DNA of 34,668 nucleotides from a virus (IMGVR_UViG_2737471865_000001:1-34668); one strand, 5' to 3'; shown: positions 5,967 to 34,668, numbered from the stretch's first letter. The notes: generated by a model not told the origin, from the letters alone. A program made the numbers and translations.

Positions 5967-6617
5967 TTAAGGAAGGTTTGCTAGCTTGGCATCAACGACA
6001 ACGCCAATGATTTTACAGTTCCCATTGATTTCAATCATTGGGTATTGTGGATTGAGTGGTTTCAGGAATTTTCTACCGGCATCAATAACTAACTTTTTGA
6101 ATGTCGCCTCGTTTTCTCCTTCAAGTTTGGCGACTACCAGCTTTCCATTACGTGGTTCGACTTCTGGGTCGACGAGAATAATCATCCCCTCAGGAATACT
6201 CAGTCCTGCCGGGGCAGTCATTGAATCGCCTTTAACGTCGAGCCAAAAAGAGTCTTCAGAACAATCTACCGTTGTGTCGTACCAGTTATCTATTGCACGC
6301 CTATGATATGGCTCTACAGCTTCCATCCAACATCCTGCGCTTACCCAACTAATTAGAGGATACGAACCTCTTGGATCATGCCTGCTGTGATAGGCAATGT
6401 TTGAAAGACTATCCTCTCCTTTCAACAGGTAATCAGGGGAGCACTGCAAAGCCTTGGCTAAGGCCAATAGGTTTTCGCCATTGGGCTCAGTTTCAGATCG
6501 CTCCCATTGGGAAATAGCAACATTAGACACGCCAACCATCTTGCCAAGGGCAGCCTGCCTAATCTTGAGTTCTTTTCTGCGAGCGCGAATACGCTCACCC
6601 ATCAGTTGTGTATTCAT
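5967..6617 (-). CDS. c2: prophage repressor C2 (CI-type; HTH plus LexA-like S24 peptidase domain)
   Basis: 216 aa: N-terminal HTH (QAALGKMVGVSNVAISQWER) and C-terminal autocleavage domain (GDSM...VVAKL). Essentially matches P22 C2 as I recall it. Confidence 0.93.
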   Translation of the reverse strand: MNTQLMGERIRARRKELKIRQAALGKMVGVSNVAISQWERSETEPNGENLLALAKALQCSPDYLLKGEDSLSNIAYHSRHDPRGSYPLISWVSAGCWMEAVEPYHRRAIDNWYDTTVDCSEDSFWLDVKGDSMTAPAGLSIPEGMIILVDPEVEPRNGKLVVAKLEGENEATFKKLVIDAGRKFLKPLNPQYPMIEINGNCKIIGVVVDAKLANLP

Positions 6618-8327: not shown

Positions 8328-8434
8328 ACCATGAAATCAAAAATCAAATCGCTACTGGTCGCTGGTTATAACCACGGCTGGTTAAGTATTTCGTTTGTCA
8401 ATTTCTGGTTTAAAAATCTCAATCTGAGGGAATC

Positions 8435-11341
8435 ATGACGCCAAGTGAACTTAGCGATCTGCTTTGGGTGCAGGTTGACAGGGTGGCTCCGCACCTGTTG
8501 CCAAACGGCAAGAAAGAGGGGCATGAGTGGGTTGCCGGTAACGTCAACGGTGACAAGGGAAACAGCCTTAAGGTCAACCTTAGCGGCAAGAAAAAATGGG
8601 CTGATTTCGCTGAGGGAGACGGCGGTGACATGCTTGATTTGTGGATGGCATGTCGTGGAATTAACCTGCATCAGGCGATGCATGAAGCGAAAGCATTTCT
8701 CGGAATCAAGGATGACGATCACCATTTCGATGCCAAACGTGAGAAGAAATTCTCCAGACCTGATCGCAAGAAGATCGCCCGCTACGTTACCAGAACAGAA
8801 TCCCATCTTGAGTACCTGCAATCGCGTGGTATATCGCCAGAAATCGTAAAGCGCTACGAGGTTGTCAGCGGCAAGGTGTGGAATGGAGAGCGGGAACTGG
8901 ATGCTCTGGTGATTCCGTACAAACGCGATGGTGAGTTGTTGCAGGTCAAGCGAATCAGCACTGAGCGCCCGGACGGGAAGAAAGTCATTATGGCAGAAGG
9001 TGATTGCGAACCTTGTCTGTTCGGATGGCAGGCTCTGGACGCTGGCGTGAGGGCGGTTGTGCTTTGCGAAGGCGAAATTGATTGTATGAGCTATGCGCAA
9101 TACGGCATCTCGGCGTTATCCGTGCCGTTTGGTGGCGGGAAAGGCGCTAAGCAACAGTGGATTGAGTTTGAGTATCACAACCTCGACAGGTTTGAGGAAA
9201 TATTCATCTCGATGGACGTTGATGATGTTGGTCGTGAAGCCGCAAGGGAAATCGCAAGCCGACTCGGTGAACATCGTTGCCGTCTTGTTACTCTGCCGTA
9301 CAAAGACATCAACGAATGCCTGATGAACGGTGTTACCGAGGATGAAATCTGGCAGTACATTGGCACGGCATCCTACTTCGATCCTGAAGAACTCTACAGC
9401 GCGCGAGAGTTTTACCATGACACTATCAACGCTTTCTACGGCAAGCAGCAGTATCTGTTTAATCCACCGTGGGAATCTCTGGCAGATAAATTCCAGTTCC
9501 GTGAGGCAGAATTGACGCTGGTCAATGGTGTGAACGGTCACGGAAAAGCCTGTCCACTTGATGAACCAATTCTGCTCGCTAATGGTGAATGGACTACTCA
9601 CGGGGATGTAAAAATTGGCGATCAGGTGGCATCAGTAGACGGCAATCCGTCAACTGTCACCGGGATATTCCCGCAGGGTGTTAGAGATGTTTACCGAGTC
9701 ACATTTGAAGATGGTCGTTATGTTGATTGCGCAGGCGATCACCTATGGGAGGTCACTAGTCGTGGATTCACGAAAGGCGAGAAGCGCCGCGTGATAGACA
9801 CCTTCGAGCTGAAACGGTTGAGTGAAACGAAGAGGCACAAAAATGGCGTCAGGATACCCGAAATAACTGGTGACTTTGGCGACCACTCAGAGCCATTAGC
9901 ATGGGTTATCGGCTCCCTTCTCGGGGATGGTAGTCTTAGCAATGGGAGCGTGAAGTTTTCAAACGTCGAGCCATACATGATCGAGCGTATGAAGGCTGAA
10001 CTGCCTGATTACAACTTCTCTGGAGATGGTAAGGACTGGCTGATATCAACGGCGCGTGGTCAGGTAAATCCACTCATGGAGACCCTGCGAGTTTATGGAC
10101 TAATGGGGTGCACAGCAAAAAACAAATTCATCCCTCGTGTGTTTTTTTCCGCAAACAAATCAACGCGTATAGGAATGCTGTGTGGTCTGCTTGAAACGGA
10201 TGGTTATGTCGAGAAGGATGGAACGCTTGTTTTTTCCTCAGCAAGTGAAGAACTGCGTAATGGGGTTGTTCAACTGGTTAACTCACTCGGCGGTTCATGC
10301 CGGACGCGAGTTAAAACTGGCGTGACATACACATACAAGGGCGATAAGCGGCATGGGATGGATTCATATGAGGCAAGGATACGACTGACAAGGGAAATCA
10401 GGGAGGCCATCCGTTCACCACGACTCAATGGCAGATTAACTGCGCATCGATTCGAGGGGTGTGGGGTATTCGTCAGGAATGTTGAAAAAATCGGCAATGC
10501 AGAATGCTTGTGTATCATGGTCGATCACCCTCGCCACCTGTATGTAACCAGAGGATATGTGGCAACGCATAACACCGAGGTTGTCGGGCATATGGCACTT
10601 GAGGCAATGCGTCAGGGTGTGAAGACGTGCATCGCGTCACTTGAGCTGAAGCCTGGTATTCTCCTTAAGCGCCTTACCCGTCAGGCGACGTGCTGCAAGA
10701 TGCCGCCAGTGCTGGAAATTGACTCTGCATTTAAATTTTATGACGAAAGACTTTGGGTGTTTGGTCTGACCGGAACGGCGAAAGCCGACAGGCTGATCGA
10801 AATATTCGACTACGCTCGCCGCCGATACGGCATCCAGTTATTCATCATCGACAGCCTGATGAAATGCGGCATAGGTGACGATGATTATAACGGGCAGAAG
10901 GCGTTTGTTGACTCGATTTGCGACTTCAAAAACAAAACAAACTCCCACGTCATTCTCGTTACTCACTCGCGAAAAGGAGACAGCGAAGAAAAACCAACCG
11001 GGAAAATGGACGTAAAAGGCTCTGGAGCGATAACAGACCTGACAGACAACCTTTTCATCATCTGGCGTAACAAGGCTCGCGAGAGAGCGTTACAGAGAGT
11101 TCAGAGTGGTGAAAAGATGTCAGAGAAGGACGAACAGCTACTGGCATCTCCGGCATCTGTTTTGATGCTTGAAAAACAACGTAACGGCGAAGGTTGGGAA
11201 GGTGGTGTCCCGTTGTTCCTTGACGAGCAATCGCACCAGTTCCTGCAACTTGAATCAGGGTCGCCATATAGCTACATCGCTAATATGCCGAAATCGGAAT
11301 ATGACGAGGCGTGGCGACAGGAAAACGTGACGGAGTATTAA
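8435..11341 (+). CDS. bifunctional DNA primase / SF4 (DnaB/T7 gp4-like) helicase, interrupted by an in-frame intein
   Basis: 968 aa. N-terminal primase region with TOPRIM motifs (VLCEGEIDCMS; ISMDVDDVGRE). P-loop NGVNGHGKA at residues 365..372. C-terminal helicase motifs LFIIDSLM (Walker B), HVILVTHSRKGD and KGSGAITDLTDNLFII align with T7 gp4 helicase motifs. Residues 373..713 are an intein. Confidence 0.88.
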   Translation: MTPSELSDLLWVQVDRVAPHLLPNGKKEGHEWVAGNVNGDKGNSLKVNLSGKKKWADFAEGDGGDMLDLWMACRGINLHQAMHEAKAFLGIKDDDHHFDAKREKKFSRPDRKKIARYVTRTESHLEYLQSRGISPEIVKRYEVVSGKVWNGERELDALVIPYKRDGELLQVKRISTERPDGKKVIMAEGDCEPCLFGWQALDAGVRAVVLCEGEIDCMSYAQYGISALSVPFGGGKGAKQQWIEFEYHNLDRFEEIFISMDVDDVGREAAREIASRLGEHRCRLVTLPYKDINECLMNGVTEDEIWQYIGTASYFDPEELYSAREFYHDTINAFYGKQQYLFNPPWESLADKFQFREAELTLVNGVNGHGKACPLDEPILLANGEWTTHGDVKIGDQVASVDGNPSTVTGIFPQGVRDVYRVTFEDGRYVDCAGDHLWEVTSRGFTKGEKRRVIDTFELKRLSETKRHKNGVRIPEITGDFGDHSEPLAWVIGSLLGDGSLSNGSVKFSNVEPYMIERMKAELPDYNFSGDGKDWLISTARGQVNPLMETLRVYGLMGCTAKNKFIPRVFFSANKSTRIGMLCGLLETDGYVEKDGTLVFSSASEELRNGVVQLVNSLGGSCRTRVKTGVTYTYKGDKRHGMDSYEARIRLTREIREAIRSPRLNGRLTAHRFEGCGVFVRNVEKIGNAECLCIMVDHPRHLYVTRGYVATHNTEVVGHMALEAMRQGVKTCIASLELKPGILLKRLTRQATCCKMPPVLEIDSAFKFYDERLWVFGLTGTAKADRLIEIFDYARRRYGIQLFIIDSLMKCGIGDDDYNGQKAFVDSICDFKNKTNSHVILVTHSRKGDSEEKPTGKMDVKGSGAITDLTDNLFIIWRNKARERALQRVQSGEKMSEKDEQLLASPASVLMLEKQRNGEGWEGGVPLFLDEQSHQFLQLESGSPYSYIANMPKSEYDEAWRQENVTEY
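9551..10573 (+). mobile_element. intein (341 aa) with LAGLIDADG homing-endonuclease domain, inserted in the helicase Walker A loop
   Basis: Begins with Cys immediately after GHGKA (CPLDEPILLANGEW, Hint block A). Two LAGLIDADG-type motifs (VIGSLLGDGSL and LCGLLETDGYV). Ends YVATHN followed by Thr as the +1 extein residue. Flanking exteins together form a contiguous helicase domain. Confidence 0.85.
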
Positions 11342-12398: not shown

Positions 12399-12571
12399 GA
12401 CGACAGCGACGAAGTATCACCGACATAATCTGCGAAAACTGCAAATACCTTCCAACGAAACGCTCCAGAAATAAACGCAAGCCAATTCCAAAAGAATCTG
12501 ACGTAAAAACCTTCAATTACACGGCTCACCTGTGGGATATCCGGTGGCTAAGAAATCGTGCGAGGAAATGA
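12395..12571 (+). CDS. ninE: NinE-family small protein
   Basis: 58 aa [58 protein letters not shown]; ATG overlaps the ninB stop as ATGA. I am unsure whether this is catalogued as NinD or NinE. Confidence 0.75.
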
Positions 12572-12975
12572 CAATGCTTTTAATTCAACCTGGATTTGGC
12601 CTTAGCATCAAAAAAGGGCACATGTTTGGCGAGAAAGAGTCTCAACGAAAAATGGTGTCGATACAGTTGCCATTTATCAGTATTTATTGGCTAAACAGGG
12701 AGGCAACAAATTATTGGTATACATGCGCCAGAGCAGCATTTAACGACCCTGACTGGTTTGTGAATAACCACCACGCAGTTCGTCAGGCAAAGAGAAAGGC
12801 CAATACGACATACATGAAGGCGTATCGAAAAGCATGGAAAGAACACCGCGATCGATACCAGCAAGACATGGAAAAGCTTGAATCAGAAAACATGGAATTA
12901 AGACGAAAGCTTGGTGAAGCAAAACGAGACATTGATGCTTACAAGCGACTTTTTAATGGTGAAAGCCATGCTTAG
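12568..12975 (+). CDS. hypothetical protein with C-terminal coiled coil (135 aa from the coupled ATG)
   Basis: ATG at 12568 overlaps the ninE stop; C-terminus [30 protein letters not shown] is coiled-coil-like. Confidence 0.45.
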
Positions 12976-13144
12976 TCCATCCCAATCTCTTCAATACCAG
13001 AAAGAAAGCGTCGAGCGGGCTTTAACGTGCGCTAACTGCGGTCAGAAGCTGCATGTGCTGGAAGTTCACGTGTGTGAGCACTGCTGCGCAGAACTGATGA
13101 GCGATCCGAATAGCTCAATGTACGAGGAAGAAGACGATGAATGA
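12968..13144 (+). CDS. ninF: NinF
   Basis: 58 aa [46 protein letters not shown]... with CxxC...CxxCC zinc-ribbon-like pattern; matches lambda NinF from memory. Confidence 0.88.
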   Translation: MLSPSQSLQYQKESVERALTCANCGQKLHVLEVHVCEHCCAELMSDPNSSMYEEEDDE

Positions 13145-13859
13145 GTTAATAAATGGCAATGCCATCAAAATGACAAGCATTGAAATCGCTGAGTTGGTTG
13201 GTAAGCGTCATGACAATGTGAAACGTACCATCGAAACGCTGGCTAAAAATGGTGTTATCCGGCTTCCTCAAATTGAGGTTTCCGAAAGAATCAATAACTT
13301 AGGGTTCAATGTTCAGTACGAGCATTACGTCTTCGAAGGCGAACAAGGTAAGCGAGACAGTATTGTCGTTGTTGCCCAGTTGTCGCCAGAGTTCACCGCT
13401 CGCCTTGTTGACCGCTGGCGAGAGCTTGAAGAAGCTGCGGTTAATATCCCCAAAACGCTACCGGAAGCGTTGCGCCTTGCTGCTGATCTTGCCGAGAAGA
13501 AAATGCAACTGGAAAACCAGCTCGCAATTGCCGCACCTAAAGTTGAGTTTGCCGATCGAGTTGGCGAGGCCAGCGGAATTTTGATTGGAAACTATGCAAA
13601 GGTTGTTGGTATTGGTCCAAACAAACTGTTTGCATGGATGCGCGATCACAAAATCCTTATTGCTTCAGGTTCCCGGCGCAATGCGCCAATGCAGGAATAT
13701 ATGGATCGCGGCTATTTCACAGTGAAAGAAACAGCTGTCAACACAAATCACGGAATACAGATATCGTTCACCACAAAAATCACCGGGCGTGGTCAACAGT
13801 GGCTGACCAGAAAGCTGCTCGATAACGGAATGCTGAAAGTAACCGGGGAGGCTGCTTAA
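13137..13859 (+). CDS. Rha / KilAC-type phage regulatory (antirepressor-like) protein
   Basis: N-terminal Rha-like winged-helix segment (MTSIEIAELVGKRHDNVKRTIETLAKNG) and C-terminal KilA-C/AntB-like region. Confidence 0.65.
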   Translation: MNELINGNAIKMTSIEIAELVGKRHDNVKRTIETLAKNGVIRLPQIEVSERINNLGFNVQYEHYVFEGEQGKRDSIVVVAQLSPEFTARLVDRWRELEEAAVNIPKTLPEALRLAADLAEKKMQLENQLAIAAPKVEFADRVGEASGILIGNYAKVVGIGPNKLFAWMRDHKILIASGSRRNAPMQEYMDRGYFTVKETAVNTNHGIQISFTTKITGRGQQWLTRKLLDNGMLKVTGEAA

Positions 13860-14149
13860 TGGCTAACCTACGCAAAGAAGCGCGCGGAAGAGAATGCCAG
13901 GTACGTATTTACGGCGTATGCAATGGCAACCCTGAAACTACAGTTCTGGCACATTACCGGATGGCTGGAATTTGCGGAACGGGAATGAAGCCTGACGACC
14001 TGATCGGCGCATGGGCTTGTAGCGACTGCCACGCGGAGATCGACCGACGCACCCATAATCTCGACAACAAAGACGCCAGACTTTACCACCTCGAAGGCGT
14101 GATCAGGACGCAGGCGATACTGCTGAAGGAGGGGAAGATTAAGCCATGA
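13859..14149 (+). CDS. YbcO-like (DUF1364) nin-region protein, putative nuclease
   Basis: 96 aa with Cys/His pattern GRECQVRIYGVCNGNPETTVLAHYR...CSDCHAEIDRRTH, resembling DLP12 YbcO. Confidence 0.65.
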   Translation: MANLRKEARGRECQVRIYGVCNGNPETTVLAHYRMAGICGTGMKPDDLIGAWACSDCHAEIDRRTHNLDNKDARLYHLEGVIRTQAILLKEGKIKP

Positions 14150-34011: not shown

Positions 34012-34195
34012 GGTGGGATGCAAGGTCTCTATCGTTAAAATCAAGGCTGCTAATCATTTCATTGTAAATAGCGTTTTTATCTTCCATTGGCAGTCTTGAG
34101 TAAACCAGACACAGAGCATATTTCAGGGAGTTTAGCTCTTTCTCTAGCTCTTCCTTGCTTGACGTTTTTGACTTAATAAACTGTTTTTTATTCAT
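33986..34195 (-). CDS. hypothetical small protein (69 aa) downstream of the mnt-like gene
   Basis: ORF whose start overlaps the mnt-like stop (operon-like coupling); AT-rich. Confidence 0.4.
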   Translation of the reverse strand: MNKKQFIKSKTSSKEELEKELNSLKYALCLVYSRLPMEDKNAIYNEMISSLDFNDRDLASHLNSFRVPE

Positions 34196-34443
34196 TTTGT
34201 ATCCTTACCATACATGGTTTTCAGCGTCTCAACATCGTGTTCAAGATCTATCAATCGTGATGCTATAGTTGCAAGGTCTAGTGCTTGAATGTGTTTATTT
34301 TTTTCTGTCCACGCTTCAAGTGCCGCGACCATCTCAGCATTTAATGAACGAGAATTAGCCTCAGCCAGTTCAATAAGACGTTCCTTTATCTCTACAGGAA
34401 GCCTCAGATTCACTTGAGGGTTTTTGTACTTACGATCAGACAT
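34192..34443 (-). CDS. mnt: Mnt-like ribbon-helix-helix repressor
   Basis: 83 aa from ATG at 34441..34443 (the track start is an upstream GTG). KNPQVNLRLPVEIKERLIELAEANSRSLNAEMVAAL fits the Arc/Mnt RHH fold, with a C-terminal helical oligomerisation tail; same length as P22 Mnt. Confidence 0.7.
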   Translation of the reverse strand: MSDRKYKNPQVNLRLPVEIKERLIELAEANSRSLNAEMVAALEAWTEKNKHIQALDLATIASRLIDLEHDVETLKTMYGKDTK

Positions 34444-34481
34444 CGGCACATCCTGAATAATTTTTTACCACAGGATATGTA

Positions 34482-34548: not shown

Positions 34549-34668
34549 ATGAAGGTAAAAACACTGCGTATGCCAGAGAAGTTAGAAAAAATCCTTGAAG
34601 AGAAAGCAAAGGAAGAGTGTCGCTCATTTAGCGCAGAAGTAATTAAACGGTGTTCTTGCCCCCTAATT
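34549..34668 (+). CDS. arc: Arc-like RHH repressor, 5' partial (runs off the window end)
   Basis: My translation MKVKTLRMPEKLEKILEEKAKEECRSFSAEVIKR... shows the Arc-type pattern (basic beta-strand then ...RS.SAE/NSEI...); GGAG RBS; divergent from the mnt-like gene. Confidence 0.5.
   Translation, partial: MKVKTLRMPEKLEKILEEKAKEECRSFSAEVIKRCSCPLI

Follow-up and report, generated by a model that had tools for sequence, protein, structure and literature searches.

Results

Location and neighbourhood of the roi gene

The window, that is, the whole 34,668-nucleotide (34.7-kb) stretch of DNA that was analysed, corresponds to a P22-like (Lederbergvirus-type) E. coli phage and is a mosaic of CUS-3, Kapi1 and 720R6. 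Within its nin region we found an ATG-initiated open reading frame of 240 codons, preceded by genes for NinB, NinE, an additional ORF and NinF, and followed by a YbcO-family gene, RusA, NinH and Q. A sequence-only reading of this DNA had described a 240-aa, two-domain product encoded between ninF and a YbcO-like gene, and the ORF, its Pfam matches and its neighbours bore this out. The three genes at the locus are:

13137..13859, plus strand, roi coding sequence, 240 aa (identity and gene order shared with annotated roi genes)
12968..13144, plus strand, ninF, upstream neighbour (Pfam NinF; its stop overlaps the roi start)
13859..14149, plus strand, YbcO-family gene (HkbD / HK97 gp66-like), downstream neighbour (Pfam YbcO, 147 bits; PHROG 131 'HNH endonuclease')

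The ATG of roi overlaps the stop codon of ninF by 8 nt, and the stop codon of roi overlaps the ATG of ybcO by 1 nt, indicating that the gene is translationally coupled on both sides within the pR delayed-early operon. No promoter-like site was detected directly upstream of roi in a promoter/terminator scan, the nearest one on the plus strand being located at 12400-12429, and a LexA-box scan, whose total was at the chance level, gave no box within 2.5 kb of the gene. The protein had no match to any anti-phage defence model of PADLOC. The additional ORF between ninE and ninF (12532-12975, plus strand, at most 147 aa) matched PHROG 1511 and had no Pfam match; this segment is absent in HK620, where the nin-region alignment breaks.

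Identity and distribution of roi

The similarities found identify the ORF at 13137-13859 as roi, an already known accessory delayed-early gene of lambdoid phages, an identity that the sequence-only reading had missed. Amino acid identity of the product was 98% with HK620 Roi and 87% with HK022 Roi. The DNA, at a level of similarity well above chance, was 98.1% identical to the annotated roi of HK620, 97-98% identical to its counterpart in CUS-3, HK140, HK633 and several Stx phages, and about 90% identical to HK97 roi. The gene order ninB-ninE-ninF-roi-HkbD(ybcO)-rus-ninH-Q was common to HK620, HK022 and HK97. The position in the nin region upstream of Q, the length of about 240 aa, the presence of Rha and KilAC domains and the identity to the HK022 protein place the product in the Roi orthologous group. 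The gene is annotated also in HK97, HK620, CUS-3, H-19B and many Stx phages; to our knowledge it is carried neither by lambda nor by P22.

At the DNA level roi was present in 220 phage records, against 439 that matched some portion of the flanking nin region, in agreement with the earlier proposal that it lies outside the minimal nin set. At the protein level, relatives of Roi were detected in 1630 phage records, and the gene was found in 1110 of 5426 complete E. coli genomes, with a maximum of four copies per genome. Some relatives had N-terminal extensions (P0001 and P0002, 304 aa; P0006 and P0007, 294 aa), and two of these, P0006 and P0007, had a NinB domain instead of a recognised Rha domain; the extensions may be gene-calling artefacts or real fusions within the nin region.

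Domain organisation and predicted structure of Roi

The two domains proposed by the sequence-only reading, an N-terminal Rha and a C-terminal KilA-C domain, were both recovered above the Pfam cut-offs. Phage_pRha (PF09669) covered residues 12-99 with 36.7 bits (cut-off 29.9), and ANT/KilAC (PF03374) covered residues 126-228 with 111 bits (cut-off 25.3; E 4.6e-32). The NCBIfam model of the Rha subfamily, TIGR02681, gave 17.9 bits against a cut-off of 45.95, although the cut-off of PF09669 was passed. Roi also matched PHROG 63, 'anti-repressor Ant', with an E value of 8.8e-98, and its KilAC half shared 66% identity with the C-terminal part of P1 KilA and 55% with P1 Ant1.

The protein was modelled with AlphaFold on the basis of 62 diverse homologues (mean pLDDT 89). 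The model predicts, from the N-terminus, a strand (residues 11-13), a helix (14-21), a recognition helix (25-37), a wing formed by a beta-hairpin with strands 45-52 and 58-67, and two further helices (68-82 and 84-101). In the C-terminal half a long helix (108-144), which might possibly serve as a dimerisation element, is followed by a compact KilAC unit predicted to consist of two short helices, a beta-hairpin and a helix. Searches of the solved structures by sequence gave no matches, the Foldseek search of the PDB gave none that was significant (best E 0.03), and the matches obtained with Foldseek among viral models all belonged to Roi's own family. The domains are located as follows:

13170..13433, plus strand, N-terminal Rha-type winged helix-turn-helix domain, aa 12-99 (Pfam PF09669; AlphaFold)
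13458..13568, plus strand, predicted long linker helix, aa 108-144 (AlphaFold; two sequence types among alleles)
13512..13820, plus strand, C-terminal KilAC/ANT domain, aa 126-228 (Pfam PF03374)

A hypervariable cassette in the DNA-binding domain

Comparison of the roi genes of 119 loci separated the alleles into six sharply distinct types, which differed almost only in residues 22-66. The KilAC half was nearly invariant and the linker occurred in two types. According to the structure model, the variable segment falls on the recognition helix and the wing.

13200..13334, plus strand, hypervariable specificity cassette, aa 22-66: turn, recognition helix and wing (119-locus allele comparison)

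In four loci (L054, L102, L118 and L122) the roi alleles end after 53 codons (...FEKNQ*), the apparent cause being one additional A in the A6 run directly 5' of the IHF core described below; this run could be a recurrent frameshift hot spot or a slippage site.

An IHF consensus within roi

The only perfect match to the IHF consensus WATCAANNNNTTR in the 34.7-kb window was located inside roi, about 1.9 being expected anywhere in a window of this length.

13289..13301, plus strand, IHF core consensus AATCAATAACTTA (perfect match to WATCAANNNNTTR)

HK022 roi and four more allele types, making five of the six types, had this consensus at the identical position (gene nt 153-165), where it forms an island of identity amid DNA that is otherwise only about 55% identical among types. 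On this consensus match roi of the window would carry an intragenic IHF site, as is the case for the Roi group. The 933W type was the only one that had no IHF consensus. In these genes of Stx phages (for example L107, L022, L008 and L009) the ORF and the KilAC half were intact, while both the IHF consensus and the dyad described below were lost, the corresponding position of the dyad reading CCTTCAATGCAAA, with three of six pairs; the control of roi in 933W-type Stx phages may differ.

A class-specific 13-nt dyad next to the IHF core

Ten bases upstream of the IHF core we found a perfect palindrome, located within the DNA that encodes the first strand of Roi's own wing.

13266..13278, no strand assigned, perfect 6+1+6 dyad CCTCAAATTGAGG, gene nt 130-142, codons 44-48, candidate Roi operator (covariation, frozen synonymous sites)

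Palindromes centred on the same nucleotide were present in HK022 (CCTGCATTGCAGC, five of six pairs), in a new type F (CCTGCATTGCAGG, six of six) and in the HK629 type (CCCCCAATGGTGG, five of six). In a scan of the initial 175 nt of roi, which offer 334 possible centres, the centre at gene nt 136 had 17 of 18 pairs over three divergent types, the runner-up having 13, and it was the only register of the variable region that was symmetric in all three. The IHF core started 23 nt after the start of the dyad in each of the 12 core-bearing sequences examined. A natural variant, CCTCAGATTGAGG, which breaks the innermost pair, occurred in four loci.

The dyad was also detected outside the close relatives. 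Homologues of 45-60% identity, including those of the Klebsiella phages KpV79 and ST11-OXA48phi15.1 (ST11-phi15), had exactly CCTCAAATTGAGG at the same codons, while other homologue lineages had CCCCCAATGGGGG, CCACCATTGGTGG, CCACCAATGGTGG or CCTGCAATGCAGG there, and in most of these genes it was the sole perfect 13-nt dyad of the entire gene. Remote Rha proteins with another helix and wing had no dyad at these codons. Altogether four classes of dyad could be recognised, each one paired with its own recognition-helix motif:

helix motif HDNV[KR]RTI, dyad with CTCAA
helix motif HDKVKQSI, dyad with CCCCA
helix motif HDSVKRTV, dyad with CACCA
helix motif xxNVK[IV]SI, dyad with CTGCA

Since the classes of helix and dyad are physically linked, lying 20-60 nt apart, this correlation could reflect descent alone.

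Conservation at the nucleotide level

Synonymous codon usage was analysed in nine class-1 lineages with a mean amino acid identity of 72% over the N-terminal domain. Outside the dyad, all 38 amino-acid-invariant codons used more than one synonymous codon, whereas the four dyad codons (Pro CCT, Gln CAA, Ile ATT and Glu GAG) were each represented by one codon in all nine lineages; the difference between 4/4 and 0/38 frozen codons gave p of about 9e-6 in our own calculation with the Fisher exact test. Class 2 showed the same synonymous-site pattern.

Pairing was examined in 29 distinct sequences against 500 shuffles. The cells of the dyad were paired in 92% of cases versus 75% in the shuffles, and the covariation score was 0.436 versus 0.144; none of the 500 shuffles reached either value. 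Slid registers were 33-47% paired. Compensatory double changes had occurred in three of the six pairs, including one between the third (synonymous) base of Pro44 and the second base of codon 47. The frozen synonymous sites and the covariation together indicate that the dyad is a functional element selected at the nucleotide level within the coding sequence.

A second perfect 13-nt palindrome, ATGGCAATGCCAT, is located at 13153-13165 (gene nt 17-29), within the 5' portion of roi that is invariant. It was present in most of the compared alleles and absent in Lahn2, the 933W type, one HK629-type allele and the distant homologues; because the region does not vary, the covariation test cannot be applied to it.

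Dyad-like sequences elsewhere

Elsewhere in the window, the scan for this dyad gave a few cores with one mismatch and a single site with two mismatches, none of them beyond chance. The latter, TCTCAATCTGAGG at 8417-8429, is one nucleotide off the variant CCTCAGATTGAGG, is likewise at the chance level, and overlaps the Shine-Dalgarno region of a primase/helicase gene. The product of that gene (8435-11341, plus strand) is a replication protein of 968 aa that combines Toprim and AAA_25 (helicase-type) domains. Hint and LAGLIDADG domains interrupt it, and this insertion appears to represent an intein carrying a homing endonuclease.

The roi-flanking DNA of other phages, about 1 Mb in all, showed no enrichment of additional cognate dyads over non-cognate ones. 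A recurrent upstream CCCCCAATGGGGG falls inside the replication gene O and has no relation to Roi. This perfect palindrome lies in the gene O segment that encodes the motif ...TPLPPNGGGDG..., 3-6.6 kb upstream of roi and whatever the roi class (L027, L028, L038, L047, L056 and other loci), and may belong to the origin region. As no further cognate sites were found in the flanking phage DNA, the visible target is roi itself, and no regulon is visible.

Discussion

Roi as a probable regulator that binds its own gene

HK022 Roi is reportedly a helix-turn-helix DNA-binding protein whose binding site lies within roi itself, closely linked to an IHF site, and IHF is said to stabilise the binding. 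The protein reportedly blocks lytic growth in IHF-deficient hosts, and single amino acid changes in it are said to allow HK022 to grow on such hosts; its C-terminal half has also been reported to resemble P1 Ant1 and KilA. Applying this phenotype to the Roi of the window is an extrapolation, given that its recognition cassette is another one.

What is new here is the presence inside roi of an IHF consensus together with a class-specific dyad that co-varies with the recognition helix. Three features make the dyad at 13266-13278 the probable Roi operator: a palindromic form that would suit a dimer, its place next to an IHF site, and a sequence that changes along with the recognition helix. On the other hand, 13 bp is short for a palindrome bound by a helix-turn-helix dimer. 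The literature search for the dyad sequences returned unrelated primers only, and the searchable papers made no mention of a class-specific intragenic dyad or of an exchange of helix, wing and site as a cassette, although the 1996 HK022 study may place the site there. The title of that study (Clerget and Boccard, J Bacteriol 178:4077) is cited in PMC3430580 and PMC4587872.

Taking these observations together, we consider it probable that roi encodes an IHF-linked regulator that binds its own gene, with the dyad as the likeliest target and an autogenous brake or roadblock as the outcome. The N-terminal Rha-type winged helix would bind a DNA target inside roi, most likely the 13-bp dyad, and host IHF would bind 10 bp downstream (13289-13301), stabilising the Roi complex in the way reported for HK022. 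The predicted helix 108-144 could supply dimerisation. Since the complex would be situated within the pR operon, upstream of Q, it would most plausibly function as an autogenous brake or roadblock, limiting the synthesis of Roi and perhaps also the read-through towards Q. Without IHF this control would fail and the activity of Roi, with the nearly invariant KilAC module as its presumed effector, would block lytic growth; a throttling of Roi synthesis by the Roi/IHF complex would thus explain why Roi inhibits lytic growth when IHF is lost. We infer both the step from dyad to operator and the step from operator to roadblock or autoregulation.

A wider reading, which seems to us about as apt to hold as to fail, is that throughout the subfamily the DNA encoding the helix and wing of Roi/Rha-type proteins also carries the operator, so that specificity and site would be exchanged as one cassette. 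The dyad would then have the 13-bp form CCxyzAWTz'y'x'GG at codons 44-48, with at least four matched classes of helix and dyad, and the enterobacterial roi genes would have added an IHF site at a fixed offset of 23 nt. There is also a suggestive but speculative correspondence of residue 27 with base pair three of the half-site (N/T:A, K or H/C:G, S/A:T, D/G:C).

Alternative explanations

The compensatory changes that preserve the pairing of the dyad would also be expected if it acted not as a DNA site but as a hairpin of the roi mRNA with an effect on translation or stability. Hairpins of -4.7 to -11.3 kcal/mol were predicted in all four dyad classes, and five of the 19 unpaired or wobble cells were G-U. 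However, with only one base at the centre of the dyad, its innermost A-T pair could not form in RNA, and this pair was nevertheless retained in 24 of the 29 sequences by means of a synonymous third-position A; moreover, a hairpin would not explain why the dyad follows the recognition-helix motif, and HK022 Roi reportedly binds DNA in its own gene beside the IHF site. For these reasons an RNA hairpin seems to us quite improbable. A different possibility, rather doubtful but complementary to the preferred reading of Roi as a self-binding regulator, is that the KilAC module acts on a host protein, by dampening RecA/SOS as AriS does or by inhibiting growth as KilA does, and that the part played by the Rha domain and the intragenic site is limited to setting the dose. 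A conserved host target would predict the near invariance of the KilAC half that we found despite the swapped N-terminal cassette, and the 66% identity to the P1 KilA C-terminus points in the same direction. For AriS, the KilAC domain is sufficient by itself to inhibit the SOS response, and the N-termini of AriS-like proteins are of the AntA/B, Bro-N or pRha kind (PMC9043618); the AriS data, however, come from Firmicutes and from over-expression, native levels having no effect on SOS (PMC9043618). At the sequence level no link of the Roi KilAC to RecA binding is known, its predicted fold could equally represent a second DNA-binding unit, and no solved structure resembles the modelled KilAC.

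The database label of the Roi family is 'anti-repressor', and the sequence-only reading had proposed that Roi, as a second antirepressor of this phage, mediates cross-talk with other resident prophages. Such a protein would inactivate CI/C2-type repressors of its own phage or of other prophages. P1 Ant1, to which the C-terminal half of Roi is 55% identical, is an experimentally defined antirepressor; in some Stx phages a P22-type Ant adjoins roi in the nin region and aids induction, and in Salmonella trans-acting antirepressors coordinate prophages (PMC3121763). Antirepressors of induction and cross-talk have a controlled promoter of their own, as in the Gifsy family (PMC3121763). Independent control of expression, through an own promoter under LexA or Mnt/Arc or through an antisense RNA, is a hallmark of antirepressors, but roi has neither a promoter directly upstream nor a LexA box within 2.5 kb, and because it is translationally coupled in the pR operon, Roi would be made only after repression has been lifted. 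The proposed cross-talk is therefore left unsupported, and without this independent control roi should not be filed as an antirepressor gene. In addition, the resident repressor (5967-6617, minus strand) has an S24 self-cleavage domain, and Roi is not of the families that contain the proven antirepressors of the P22 and Gifsy types, the P22_AR_N and P22_AR_C domains being absent in Roi according to Pfam. P1 KilA, which is no antirepressor, contains the KilAC module too. The published activity of Roi is said to be DNA binding, and we know of no Roi-type protein with demonstrated binding to a repressor. The KilAC homology shared with P1 Ant1 and the database label appear to be all that links Roi to antirepressors, and we regard an antirepressor function as very improbable. 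The other role that the sequence-only reading had offered, that of a host-dependent modulator of lytic growth, agrees with what is reportedly known of HK022 Roi.

The same reading had placed the true antirepressor locus of this phage past the right edge of the window, which is plausible. A ribbon-helix-helix gene of the Mnt/Arc family (34192-34449, minus strand; Mnt-like) faces a divergent Arc-like ORF (34549-34668, plus strand; MKVKTLRMPEKLEKILEEKAKEE...) that continues off the right edge, indicating that an immI-like region begins there, and at the immI position the relative Kapi1 has arc and an antirepressor with Bro-N and P22_AR_C domains.

Significance

The roi gene itself is ordinary, being annotated in hundreds of phages and present in one fifth of the complete E. 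coli genomes. Rha/KilAC proteins are among the phage proteins most commonly annotated as 'antirepressor'; for Roi this database label has no experimental backing, and the protein is better read as an IHF-linked regulator that binds its own gene. An intragenic element whose position is precisely defined, and that is selected at the nucleotide level and class-specific, offers a direct handle on the binding targets of Rha/KilAC proteins, and the dyad also allows the encoding and the exchange of their specificity to be tested. If the operator reading were true across the subfamily, it would provide a concrete, testable handle on one of the most common families of uncharacterised phage regulators.

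Comparison with known systems

HK022 Roi is like the Roi of the window in its position (ninF-roi-ybcO/ninG), its length, its two-domain architecture and the position of the IHF consensus. In contrast, its recognition helix and wing (aa 22-66) are of another type and its intragenic dyad is CCTGCATTGCAGC, that of the window being CCTCAAATTGAGG, so the DNA specificity of the two proteins probably differs.

P22 Ant is, like Roi, labelled 'antirepressor' in the databases and occurs in P22-like phages, but its domains are unrelated to those of Roi, the immI homologue of Kapi1 having Bro-N and P22_AR_C and being controlled by Mnt/Arc. Ant1/Ant2 and KilA of P1 share the C-terminal KilAC module with Roi and differ from it in their N-terminal modules, which are KilA-N in KilA and none that is recognised in Ant1. 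The ant gene of P1 is controlled by the c4 antisense RNA within immI, whereas roi lacks a separate control region.

AriS of the Listeria phage phi10403S resembles Roi in that a regulatory domain of variable type at the N-terminus is combined with KilAC at the C-terminus, and versions with pRha and KilAC exist among the AriS-like proteins (PMC9043618). It is a distant relative in sequence, from a phage of a Gram-positive host, with a compatible architecture.

The founders of PF09669, phi80 Rha and P22 orf201, have a Rha-type winged-helix N-terminal domain as Roi does, but their genes are located in the late operon and not in the nin region. We take the position of P22 rha to be the late-operon slot between Rz and the terminase genes. 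[quoted passage not shown] The Rha products of phi80 and P22, from whose genes the family takes its name, inhibit phage growth in IHF-defective hosts, which is the phenotype class of Roi (PMC4936722).
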